A stretch of 20,000 nt of DNA from positions 52,261 to 72,260 of IMG/VR virus record IMGVR_UViG_3300047407_000118; one strand, 5' to 3'. The notes beneath the pieces were generated by a model. That model ran no database searches. It was not told the DNA's origin and was given only the letters and a program-made list of their open reading frames with translations. Source of the stretch: an uncultured virus (IMG/VR IMGVR_UViG_3300047407_000118). Lineage: Duplodnaviria; Heunggongvirae; Uroviricota; Caudoviricetes. Made by a program: the position numbers and the translations under genes. This document shows, one piece after another, positions 9,231 to 12,834 of this stretch (the first letter of the stretch is position 1; the number at the start of each line of letters is the position of its first letter).

Positions 9231-9818
9231 CTAAAGGTCCTTTGGATTATTTAGTCGTCGTTGTAGGTCTTCTAGATCCAGATGAAACAGGTTAGCCAAT
9301 CCATCAAATTGAGCAATATGCGCCGTGGTTGATCCACGCACTCGGACAAAACGTATCCGCGGGAAATCGCCGGCGATACGCAGAATCTGCCGTGTCCAAT
9401 TACCGGTATAAGTGGGTTGACTGCTGCTTTTTTTGTAGAATTCGGTATCCGCATACACATTGTTGAACAGATCGCCCGGCATTGGCCCCATATCAAATCC
9501 CACGAGATATATGGGATCATGATGGGCCAGTGCAGCCAAACTCACGGCCAATGGACCTGAACTAAATCCAAAATACTGCTGGGGTACAGACTTGGCACCT
9601 AGACCCGGAATAGGTTTACGAGTATAGAACTCGTATTGAGCCGAATAGCCACTCTCTTGTATGGCCGTGCTTATGGGTCTATCTGTAGACACCAATACTG
9701 TGGGTATAAATTCACGATAGAGAGCATTACAACCATAGACGGGACCATGTCTTTTTACCTGATCCAGATCCAGCCCCATGCGACTGCGCCCGTTACCCAA
9801 CACAAAAGCCACACTCAT
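9231..9818 (-). CDS. CstII/Maf (DUF115)-like glycosyltransferase-fold protein, 195 aa
   Basis: Motifs AFVLGNGRSR, YGCNALY, SSGPLA and IYLVGFDM match the GNGPS...CN...SG...IYL.G.D pattern of CstII-type sialyltransferase/Maf/MptE-like proteins. GGAGG SD upstream. The TAG stop directly abuts the next ATG. Confidence 0.7.
   Translation of the reverse strand: MSVAFVLGNGRSRMGLDLDQVKRHGPVYGCNALYREFIPTVLVSTDRPISTAIQESGYSAQYEFYTRKPIPGLGAKSVPQQYFGFSSGPLAVSLAALAHHDPIYLVGFDMGPMPGDLFNNVYADTEFYKKSSSQPTYTGNWTRQILRIAGDFPRIRFVRVRGSTTAHIAQFDGLANLFHLDLEDLQRRLNNPKDL
9248..9254 (-). promoter_or_regulatory. T4-late-like promoter box CTAAATA upstream of the 9230 fibre gene
   Basis: Minus strand reads CTAAATAATCCAAAGGACCTTTAG-ATG. 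The box lies within the 3' end of the upstream CDS. Confidence 0.5.
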
Positions 9819-10697: not shown

Positions 10698-10711
10698 TTT
10701 GTTTGTTCCTT

Positions 10712-10783
10712 GTGTAAAGTTGCGGGTTCTATCCCGCTACGCTGTTTGGGGAAACAGCATAAGCCGCATGATTACGGACCAAG
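10712..10783 (-). promoter_or_regulatory. Structured 5' leader (three consecutive hairpins) between the late box and the 10697 gene
   Basis: Minus strand stems: CCGTA-atca-TGCGG; TATGCTGTTT-cccc-AAACAGCGTA; GCGGG-atagaa-CCCGC. An A-rich stretch with AAGGA follows. Confidence 0.5.
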
Positions 10784-10831: not shown

Positions 10832-11980
10832 GTGAATACTGCACAGCTAATTGAAACCGGCAATCAACATCGTGCTGATCGCCAATATGATGCGGCTCTG
10901 GCCTGCTATGCCCAGGCCTTTGCCCAGGATCGCGGCTCATCTGCGGCCTTCAACAATTATGGCAATGTACTGCGTGAGATCGGGGAACCTGCTGGGGCAT
11001 TGCCGTTCTTGGAACGTGCCATCCAGCTCAATCCCCAGGATCCCATGGCACAGTTCAATCGATCCGTGTGCTTGCTGCTCTTGGGCGACTATGAGCGCGG
11101 CTGGCCCGCATACGAGACCCGTTGGAACTACGAACATCTCGCGGGCACCTTGCCCCAGCTTGATCGACCGCGCTGGACCGGACAAGATCTCCGGGATCGC
11201 TCTATACTGGTCATAGGCGAACAGGGACATGGTGACTGCATACAATTCAGTCGCTTCCTATGGAACCTACATGTGTTGGGAGCCCGCGTACATTTGCAGA
11301 CCACCGATGGTTTGATACCGTTGTTCCAGAACAGCACCGTCATAGCATCGGTCTCGGCATACAGTAGTGCCATGCCCGAGGTTGATTACTGGATACCCAT
11401 CATGAGCATCCCGGCCGTGCTGGGCCTGACCCTGCAGAATCTACCGCGATCCATCAACTATATCACAGCACCCGACAATTTGTGCCAGCAATGGCGCCAA
11501 CTGTTGGGCAACAAAACGCGATTGAGAGTAGGCTTGTCCTGGAGTGGCCGCCGGGACGCCTGGCTCAACACCCACAAAGGTATGCCATTTGCTCAGGCTC
11601 TCACGCTGATACGATCAAACCCGCAATGCGAATGGATCAATCTCCAGATTGATGCCACCCCAGAAGAAACAGCGGCCTTGGCCGAGCTGGGTGTGCGCAT
11701 GTTTCCCGGTACCATCACTGGATTCCATGATACTGCGGCCCTGCTGATGAACTTAGATGTGGTGCTGAGCGTGGATACTGCCATAGCGCATCTAGCTGGG
11801 GCGCTGGGTCGTCCCACCTGGGTCATGTTGCAGCGATTTGCCGTGGACTGGCGCTGGCTTCTAGCGCGATCAGATTCGCCCTGGTATCCCACAGCACGCC
11901 TGTTCCGTCAGGAGAATTTTGATGACTGGTCCACGGTCATACGCGAAGTCAGTCAATATATCTCATGGTTCAAGGTATGA
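10832..11980 (+). CDS. TPR-repeat protein with C-terminal GT-B/GT9 (heptosyltransferase-like) glycosyltransferase domain, 382 aa
   Basis: N-terminal TPRs (AFNNYGNVLREIG...ERAIQLNP). Then RW.G.DL....ILVIGEQGHGDCIQFSR, RVGLSWSG, and DTAALLMNLDVVLSVDTAIAHLAGALGRPTW...DWRW...DSPWYPTARLFRQ, the typical TPR-GT9-like signature. Confidence 0.9.
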   Translation: MNTAQLIETGNQHRADRQYDAALACYAQAFAQDRGSSAAFNNYGNVLREIGEPAGALPFLERAIQLNPQDPMAQFNRSVCLLLLGDYERGWPAYETRWNYEHLAGTLPQLDRPRWTGQDLRDRSILVIGEQGHGDCIQFSRFLWNLHVLGARVHLQTTDGLIPLFQNSTVIASVSAYSSAMPEVDYWIPIMSIPAVLGLTLQNLPRSINYITAPDNLCQQWRQLLGNKTRLRVGLSWSGRRDAWLNTHKGMPFAQALTLIRSNPQCEWINLQIDATPEETAALAELGVRMFPGTITGFHDTAALLMNLDVVLSVDTAIAHLAGALGRPTWVMLQRFAVDWRWLLARSDSPWYPTARLFRQENFDDWSTVIREVSQYISWFKV

Positions 11981-12161: not shown

Positions 12162-12191
12162 TTGTAAACCACCTGCAGAATCGTGCATAAT
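12162..12191 (+). promoter_or_regulatory. Putative sigma70-like promoter for the tRNA (TTGTAA-N18-CATAAT)
   Basis: The -35 and -10 like hexamers end 8 nt before tRNA position 1. An overlapping ATAATTA could alternatively be a late-box variant. Confidence 0.45.
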
Positions 12192-12199
12192 TACCATAT

Positions 12200-12273
12200 G
12201 CGCCCGAAGCTGATCGGATAGCCGGAGCCTCTAAAACTCCTGGTAGCGGGTTCGACTCCCGCCTGGCGCACCA
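12200..12273 (+). tRNA. tRNA with CUA anticodon (amber suppressor, tRNA-Sup(CTA))
   Basis: Cloverleaf: acceptor GCGCCCG/CTGGCGC (one C-T mismatch), D arm GCT-GATCGGAT-AGC, anticodon arm GGAGC-CTCTAAA-ACTCC (CTA at 12231-12233, C-A at the loop-closing pair), variable loop TGGTA, T arm GCGGG-TTCGACT-CCCGC, discriminator A, encoded CCA. Confidence 0.9.
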
Positions 12274-12291
12274 CTAACCAAGGAGACTTTC

Positions 12292-12834
12292 ATGTCCTAG
12301 ATTGAATATGCATGCCGAGATTGTGTTTTTCATTTCAACAAAAAACATCTAGAAGACCCCACCGTGCCCATGTGGGTAATCAAAACACATGGTGAAACGT
12401 TCTATGTGAATCATGTCACATGCGAACTTGCCTGGTCAACCAAAGAAACCCCCGACAACACGCATACCAAAGGATCTCTCAAGATCCGTGAATGCCTGCT
12501 GACCATTGACGATGCCAATGAGGCCCGACTCACTGAACTCACAGTCTGGGATCGGGTTCGTCTGCGCAATCAGCGACTGGGTATAACTCGAATCATATTT
12601 GCATACGGTAGTGATATCCATCGTGCGCTCAAGGCCAAGGAGTTCCGGCACAGCTCTTTCAAGAACGTGAGCGGAGGATGCGGTACCAGTTTTGTGGTCT
12701 GTGATCTCCTAGATCCAGCAGAGGCCACGTTTGCTGCTCTCAAATATCAGTTCAGAGTAATGAAACCCAATGAAGATTATTATCGAGCCTATGATCAACC
12801 CGGATCTCACATAGAGGAATCGGGAGAATACTGA
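12292..12834 (+). CDS. Hypothetical phage protein (180 aa) with in-frame TAG at codon 3; requires amber read-through
   Basis: AAGGAG SD (12280-12285), 6-nt spacer, then ATG TCC TAG ATT GAA TAT GCA TGC... = MS*IEYACRDCVFHFNKKHLEDPTVPMWVIKTHGETFYVNHV.... This is in frame with the 12364-12834 ORF of the track, which has no convincing SD of its own. Confidence 0.8.

Follow-up and report, generated by a model that had tools for sequence, protein, structure and literature searches.

Why would a phage that ends its own genes with TAG carry a tRNA with a CUA anticodon, and why would that tRNA lie directly in front of a gene with a TAG at its third codon? The question is raised by the last 20 kb of the 72,260-nt virus record IMGVR_UViG_3300047407_000118 (labelled G000), the 20,000-nt stretch called the window here. 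An earlier note on this DNA proposed a key-and-lock unit, in which the tRNA is the key, the TAG is the lock, and the protein is made only once the tRNA has been matured and charged.

The unit and its reading frame

The unit consists of the following features (window positions).

12162..12191, plus strand: sigma-70-like promoter TTGTAA-18-CATAAT, 9 of 12 matches, ending 8 nt 5' of the tRNA
12200..12273, plus strand: tRNA with CUA anticodon (the key), called by ARAGORN and by Rfam RF00005 (45 bits)
12280..12285, plus strand: Shine-Dalgarno (SD) sequence AAGGAG, 6 nt 3' of the CCA and 6 nt 5' of the ATG
12292..12834, plus strand: gated gene, ATG-TCC-TAG, 177 open codons and TGA at 12832-12834; 180 aa if read through
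12298..12300, plus strand: in-frame TAG at codon 3 (the lock), next base A, seen in the sequence and in relatives
12301..12543, plus strand: N-terminal beta-domain, residues 4-84
12544..12816, plus strand: C-terminal alpha/beta domain

The CUA tRNA ending in CCA at 12273, as first described, was confirmed by ARAGORN and Rfam RF00005, and the SD, the ATG-TCC-TAG and the 177 codons up to the TGA at 12834 were all recovered in the sequence. The tRNA is the only one on the 72,260-nt contig and has G1-C72, C2-G71, A73, a C31.A39 mismatch and an encoded CCA, features that are common to its relatives. Its transcript would begin almost at tRNA base 1, although the promoter call is weak taken alone, three sigma-70-like sites being found against 1.3 expected.

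The 675 nt around the gene are identical in two other viral records. In addition, the TAG is spanned unchanged by contigs X4, X6 and X7, which come from three studies and from runs that carry no flag as the source of the record, and in which every difference sits elsewhere, while the contig of run X8 does not bridge the site. This retention in other assemblies argues against a sequencing error (reads with CAG or AAG), which the earlier note had named as a possible undoing. A scan for the pattern SD-ATG-(at most 10 codons)-stop-(at least 60 open codons) returned two candidates in the window contig, the gated gene and one TGA case, and three in the complete 352-kb relative G001; with so few candidates, the window TAG pattern is more than chance.

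Upstream of the unit lies a TPR and glycosyltransferase-9-like gene (10832-11980, plus strand). Positions 10703-10777 (minus strand), 5' of a 275-aa gene, match a profile built from four freshwater-2 RNA (RF02980) hits. In relatives, the commonest neighbours are AhpC and AhpD-like genes (42 and 39 of 146 loci, respectively).

A genome that is not recoded

The earlier note had seen no TAG recoding here, and this is upheld by TAG-free large genes and frequent true TAG stops. Three large genes run for 1960, 1099 and 1656 codons inside the window without a TAG, and TAG is the true stop of 17 of the 46 non-overlapping ORFs of at least 150 aa in G000; in G001 it ends 6 of 229 such ORFs. When the two genomes were compared with TAG read as X, 9013 aligned codons held two TAG sites, of which only the window gate is shared, the other preceding a gene start. 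Judged by these counts, the window phage is not recoded: it shares a phage-encoded CUA tRNA with code-15 phages, and neither many in-frame TAGs nor a scarcity of TAG stops was found. The long TAG-ended genes of G000 have no close backup stops (median 14 codons), and with so many true TAG stops left without close backup, suppression must be weak.

Among gated genes, TAG is the final stop in 4 of 141, only weakly lower than in other genes (82 of 1066). Coding density, taken as an indicator of local recoding, flagged four loci (L122, L198, L214 and L218), a noisy signal. A second candidate read-through site, a TAG directly before and in frame with the ATG of a 1098-aa fibre gene (window 9231-9233, minus strand), was rejected: it was present in all eight loci at first, but TAA takes its place in L020 and L036, as at an ordinary stop-start junction.

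Conservation of the lock in two-domain relatives

The window protein matched 937 database proteins, the closest of which are called from Met27 and others of which carry Q at position 3. In a first scan of DNA loci with an intact start, TAG occupied the Q position in 49 of 49, which makes code-15 gene calling the most likely source of the Q; Gln at codon 3 was therefore discarded as evidence. Four scans yielded 287 loci, and removal of 7 without the anchor motif and of 76 duplicates left 204 distinct genes. The two-domain class comprises 154 of these, including a few 3'-cut genes and L215, a fusion to a Pth2-like domain, and its start is intact in 151. Strict gating was found in 148 of these 151 relatives (61-99% identity); the 148 gated genes are related to one another and do not count as independent events. 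One more, L221, looks gated, and two are ungated with Met at the TAG position (L112 and L143), one of them with a CUA tRNA 234 nt away.

The TAG falls at codon 2-10, and at codon 3 in 106 genes. The start at 12292 proposed in the earlier note is upheld on two counts: all 148 gated relatives have an SD-like motif (permissive pattern) ahead of the upstream start, against 0 of 132 with one ahead of Met27, and residues 4-26 are conserved as well as the remainder, with synonymous variation. The internal starts at 12364 and 12370 were rejected, a GTG at codon 25 being found in 8 of 132 genes and an SD before Met27 in none of the 132. The contig search gave 7 matches, all in metagenome bins, which are probably phage contigs.

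Linkage and build of the putative suppressor tRNA

A CUA tRNA was found in the locus of 57 of the 64 genes with 3.9-kb flanks, a strong association of lock and key of the kind that the earlier note had predicted. Key and gated gene share a strand in 112 of 112 cases at a median distance of 411 nt, with the tRNA sometimes 3' of the gene or more than 10 kb away. Four of the five tested records lacking a local CUA tRNA have one elsewhere, and in gated L224 (93% complete) two patterns detected no CUA tRNA. In G001, the only CUA tRNA adjoins the gated gene, and some 220 kb separate it from the other 34 tRNAs. This variable distance and placement indicate a tRNA acting in trans, and they do not support the dependence on co-transcription originally suggested, which is not general. 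A sigma-70-like promoter stands directly 5' of the tRNA in 50 of 101 related loci, against a 3.3% background in random windows, which suggests that the tRNA is present early.

Among 99 distinct tRNAs of this kind, 97 have G1-C72 and 91 have A73, while the 31:39 pair is mismatched in 75 and G-U in 12 more, compared with mismatches in 19 of 526 other tRNAs. Initiator tRNAs have a mismatch at 1:72 and an anticodon stem with three G-C pairs, neither of which agrees with the paired 1:72 and mostly mismatched 31:39 positions seen here. In single-domain loci (described below), acceptor stems vary and the 31:39 pair is normal in 36 of 46 tRNAs, so that the anticodon and the discriminator base are probably what sets identity. 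Amber tRNAs of such build often take Lys in E. coli, and the G1-C72/A73 acceptor differs from the Gln type (U1-A72, G73). According to the accessible part of a preprint, 28 of 29 phage CUA tRNAs tested gave Gln, with Lys nearly isobaric (PMC12636597). Charging of the gate tRNA by a host synthetase and decoding of the codon appear likely.

In L003 (3632-3938) and in L004, L006, L007, L019, L044 and L049, the interval between tRNA and gated gene holds a conserved, apparently structured 100-nt element, which gave no Rfam match at gathering score in L003 and L006. A small lipoprotein-like ORF occupies the same interval in these loci. Several CUA tRNAs are labelled otherwise in GenBank, as Arg(tct) in Catera and Phabba or as Phe in Arash (L415:4105-4178, L425:1365-1435, L433:3798-3872).

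The gate moves between genes

The beta-domain was also found as a stand-alone protein, preceded by a helical domain, or in fusion with a PTH2 domain. In the 50 single-domain loci, 19 genes are gated at the start, 3 have a TAG inside the domain and 24 have a strictly gated Pth2-like neighbour, which often overlaps the start of the beta-domain gene; the domain or the neighbour is gated in 41 of 50, and a strict gate is absent in 9. The internal TAGs occupy two further sites, one in L166 and L170 and another in L154. Of 37 Pth2-like matches, 25 are strictly gated, 6 have the TAG and a later ATG, 1 is a gated fusion and 5 are ungated. The unit had been described as local, a view that no longer holds, since in unrelated phages Pth2-like genes next door are gated as well. 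The domain tree (57 rows, 70 columns) is poorly resolved, and gated and ungated single-domain genes interleave in it.

The association was also approached from the tRNA side. A DNA pattern for CUA tRNAs recovered 104 stretches, 80 of them flanked, representing 42 distinct CUA loci of at least 3 kb. A beta-domain (15) or a Pth2-like gene (15) lies within 3 kb in 29 of the 42, a share biased upward because the pattern was built from these same tRNAs. Other short-leader TAG ORFs occur near CUA tRNAs in L330, L333, L343 and L368; they match neither family and may be additional gated genes or chance occurrences.

Cultured phages

Rhizobium phage RHph_I1_18 carries a gated, unannotated beta-domain gene directly 5' of a CUA tRNA. 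Furthermore, the Pth2-like gene is TAG-gated in 13 of 15 cultured phages examined (Catera, Myrna, Phabba, ScoobyDoobyDoo, IkeLoa, Cane17, pT24, fHe-Yen9-04, RsoM2USA, ME3, Arash, Phosso and XacN1), and each of these 13 also has a CUA tRNA; the Catera stretch recurs at 95% or more in 202 phage records. In RaK2, the Pth2-like gene is ungated, and no CUA tRNA was present in the 6 examined of 10 loose pattern matches. Atu_ph07 has TGA at the gate position and a UCA tRNA, reported as a suppressor without named targets in the accessible part of its description (PMC6102473). In this one genome, lock and key thus appear to change together, TAG/CUA giving way to TGA/UCA. A sequence resembling a tRNA, in which a CUA loop sits on an extended arm (L455; Atu_ph07 323920-323949, minus strand), was not called by ARAGORN and is perhaps a relic of an earlier key.

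For XacN1, the available text states that the targets of its two CUA tRNAs were not identified and that read-through was tested only at annotated gene ends (PMC5852040). A candidate target lies at record position 243735, where an SD-led start, one codon and a TAG are followed by 283 codons encoding HD-like and Pth2-like parts; an ATG five codons past the TAG could bypass the gate. The same could apply to six mycobacteriophages with a GTG and usable SD directly 3' of the TAG, in which the first start lies 6-7 nt behind the -10 box, as a leaderless start would.

Matches to Pfam PF01981 (PTH2, cut-off 23) reached 44.1 bits in L146, 34.3 in L192 and 31.4 in Catera, placing these partner genes in the PTH2 family by profile score; fHe-Yen9-04 falls below the cut-off at 17.2. 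Behind the Pth2-like gene, or in one protein with it, comes an HD-like family (weak Pfam HD match, E 0.035), whose members in RsoM2USA and XacN1 have a TAG gate themselves. A helical family is joined to the beta-domain in Phosso and Atu_ph07 or occurs by itself. HD-like or helical genes occur at L431:3391, L483:937, L417:3447, L317 and L374.

The gated protein and its neighbours

The window protein matched no Pfam or PHROG family. Its beta-domain has a confidently predicted fold (pLDDT 97), for which the fold search gave a best Z of 3.6 (rmsd 3.6, 64 aligned), not above background and naming no function. In an ADP-ribosyltransferase/OB fold comparison, ART chains scored Z 2.4-3.2; a lack of fold match does not in itself demonstrate a new fold. 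The C-terminal domain has a generic ACT/RRM-like (ferredoxin-type) arrangement with a mostly conserved Cys pair, and its best match (Z 5.3, rmsd 3.2, 72 aligned) is within chance range. Pth2 was not among the listed fold matches of the window protein. Conserved Lys, His, Trp and Tyr residues would suit RNA binding.

The best lead to function comes from the genomic context. In the 50 single-domain loci, Pth2-like genes were found in 34, a CCA/poly(A)-type enzyme in 14 and an RF1-like gene in 9. Of 14 loci scanned, 3 have a tmRNA adjoining the tRNA or the gated gene, and so does XacN1. These neighbours, together with the PTH2 fusion, point to translation termination and rescue. In the window clade, the gated protein combines the beta-domain with the ACT/RRM-like domain, and no Pth2-like match was found in the near-complete two-domain phages G001-G003; the rescue link of this clade therefore depends on the beta-domain it has in common with the other loci and on the nearby tmRNAs.

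Permuted tmRNAs were located at L021:4501-4855, L023:4360-4752, L013:5525-5913 and L484:2624-3044, the betaproteobacterial type of the first three hinting at the host group. The RF1-like gene is truncated (PxT and GGQ motifs, Pfam RF-1 and PCRF) and lies about 2-4 kb upstream of the module. It has two in-frame TGA codons at L173:1880, L186:2501, L192:2008, L209:1721, L210:595 and L218:2717, and a CTT-TAG break at the second site at L174:418, L175:2191 and L197:2006, with the +1 frame continuing in L197. This break resembles the RF2 frameshift and would represent a second stop-gated termination factor. A short GGQ protein, presumably ArfB-like, is encoded inside the main tRNA cluster of G001 (L414; G001:C1:312348-312635, minus strand).

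Probable read-through and competing explanations

The evidence favours a conserved, phage-encoded stop-codon read-through gate, to which we assign a probability of about 0.8. The TAG is conserved, the start lies upstream of it, coding conservation continues behind it, the tRNA is linked to it and general recoding is absent; in addition, several independent sites and partner genes are gated, with one TGA/UCA swap. The key-and-lock idea accordingly stands well supported, every computational check that could have overturned it having come out in its favour. In the proposed mechanism, a ribosome would start at the SD-led ATG (12292 in the window) and meet the UAG after 1-9 codons. Where host RF1 wins, only a peptide of 2-3 residues would result (a dipeptide in the window); where the charged phage tRNA wins, an amino acid would be inserted at a place where no particular residue is needed, and the full protein would be made.

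What the gate is for is a more tentative matter. The purpose we favour, at somewhat short of even chances, is that the gate reports the competition between tRNA and RF1 and thereby turns on a peptidyl-tRNA recycling or ribosome-rescue kit. Slow termination or a shortage of release factors would then raise output, and the kit would comprise the Pth2-like hydrolase, the beta-domain, and the HD-like and helical partners. A sensor of tRNA damage fits less well, because damage would shut off a repair gene.

An unlikely alternative, though one that deserves weighing, is a fixed low-dose limiter or infection-only lock, in which a deliberately weak suppressor would hold down a product that does harm at high levels. 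Initiator or peptidyl tRNAs could be stripped by surplus Pth activity, the mismatch at 31:39 in 75 of 99 tRNAs should weaken decoding, and many true TAG stops of G000 have no close backup. However, a weak SD would be a cheaper means to the same end, and the SD is strong; most tRNAs of single-domain loci (36 of 46) show normal pairing at 31:39. A purine after the stop favours suppression, and all 148 genes have one behind the gate TAG, 144 of them A and 4 of them G; among true TAG stops, A follows 27 of 82.

A timer, also offered in the earlier note, would let the protein appear only once the tRNA has accumulated, as for the late genes of recoded gut phages, and has been proposed for code-15 phages (10.1101/2021.08.26.457843). 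We consider it improbable for these loci. A TAAATA motif is found 5' of 74 of 144 gated genes compared with 25-33% of other genes, which would suit such timing. This motif we take to be the T4-type late promoter. Yet the tRNA has a sigma-70-like promoter of its own in half of the related loci (50 of 101, background 3.3%), the mycobacteriophage gates sit right behind such a promoter, and no gated lysis or structural gene was found in G000 or G001.

Suppression might also not occur at all, the ATG-NNN-TAG minigene terminating, the ribosome re-initiating at the next codon or beyond and the tRNA serving otherwise. In line with this, ATT is the codon after the TAG in 127 of 148 genes, in ungated relatives Met takes the very place of the TAG, and mycobacteriophages have GTG behind the TAG. 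Re-initiation, however, needs no given stop, and the stop is TAG in 148 of 148; it cannot bypass the internal TAGs of L154, L166 and L170, the next codon may be ACT, AAC, CAA or GTA, and in Atu_ph07 the TGA is paired with a UCA tRNA. These points make it highly improbable.

GenBank labels imply insertion of a special, pyrrolysine-like residue, and ARAGORN and several records say tRNA-Pyl, a reading also taken in the part of PMC5966550 that was available. ARAGORN, however, gives this name to any CUA tRNA, and the chance that the labels are right is very small. The TAG moves and sits in a variable leader or loop. True tRNA-Pyl has G73, a short variable loop and non-canonical D and T loops, unlike the canonical cloverleaf with full D and T arms and A73 (91 of 99) seen here. 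Neither pylS, pylBCD nor any other synthetase was found among 30 annotated neighbour clusters. A relic or onset of code-15 recoding, a pseudogene or a sequencing error is remoter still, for although suppressor acquisition can precede recoding (10.1101/2021.08.26.457843, as far as the accessible text goes) and TAG stops are few in G001 (6 of 229), each gene has one fixed TAG that is strongly conserved across distant phages, no other in-frame TAG is shared in 9013 aligned codons and other assemblies agree.

Relation to known systems

The read-through gate is best seen as a variant of tRNA-gated expression that is, on the genomic record, real and conserved. In Streptomyces, the bldA tRNA licenses a few genes through a TTA codon that is often near the 5' end, and the gate likewise ties one tRNA to a private codon in a few genes. 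The bldA system differs in using a sense codon, in being cellular and developmental and in lacking release-factor competition. Pyrrolysine and selenocysteine systems have a dedicated tRNA, few in-frame stops, a special residue at the active site and their own enzymes, unlike the gate, whose position is unconstrained. RF2 (prfB) is made through an autoregulatory frameshift. ArfA is controlled by tmRNA, the step that it backs up (PMC8012679, accessible part). Here too, synthesis of a termination or rescue factor would depend on failure of the step it backs up, if the gated products do back up termination; RF2 and ArfA, however, have no dedicated tRNA and use frameshifting or non-stop mRNA.

Lambda bar minigenes also consist of a start, one codon and a stop, and such start-codon-stop minigenes cause peptidyl-tRNA drop-off and are tied to Pth (PMC8012679, same part); unlike the gate, they have no conserved in-frame gene behind the stop and no suppressor tRNA. 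In code-15 phages (crAss-like and Lak), a phage tRNA reads UAG in a standard-code host, which is proposed to control expression, and many late and lysis genes carry TAGs read as Gln, according to the available portion of the report (Borges et al., 10.1101/2021.08.26.457843). In contrast, the phages described here have one or two translation-related genes with a single TAG close to the start codon, still use TAG commonly as a stop and have a tRNA with no Gln-type acceptor.

The same tRNAs have been reported for XacN1 (PMC5852040) and Atu_ph07 (PMC6102473), with peptidyl-tRNA hydrolase genes in the same genomes. Other jumbo-phage papers describe PTH2, release factors, tmRNA or tRNA-Pyl and, in their accessible portions, no gate (PMC7824862, PMC7162821, PMC13037316, PMC5966550, PMC11242549, 10.1101/2024.03.08.584096). 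A description of the gate was not found in the literature searched, although tRNA tables in supplements may bear on this. The present analysis adds that the gate can move and that the beta-domain is shared, together with test cases in cultured phages and a TGA/UCA swap, the last in one genome.

Significance

The gate provides a candidate target and purpose for the suppressor tRNAs of standard-code phages, which genome papers had described with no target found (XacN1, Atu_ph07) or labelled pyrrolysine. It also brings to light a group of phage genes that annotation overlooks, cuts short or fills with Gln, and it suggests that phages may read translation termination as a signal. The proposal is directly testable in cultured phages whose hosts are harmless, namely the cluster C mycobacteriophages of M. 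smegmatis and RHph_I1_18 of Rhizobium phaseoli, and the gate tRNAs constitute a natural set of tuned suppressors. More broadly, and with rather less confidence than the read-through itself commands, a widespread circuit can be envisaged in which a private suppressor tRNA would probe host release-factor activity and gate a mobile rescue and tRNA-recycling kit, including a possibly new-fold beta-domain, with switching between UAG/CUA and UGA/UCA; we hold this to be less probable than not. If true, phages of Proteobacteria, Bacteroidota and mycobacteria could sense and counter defences that target translation.
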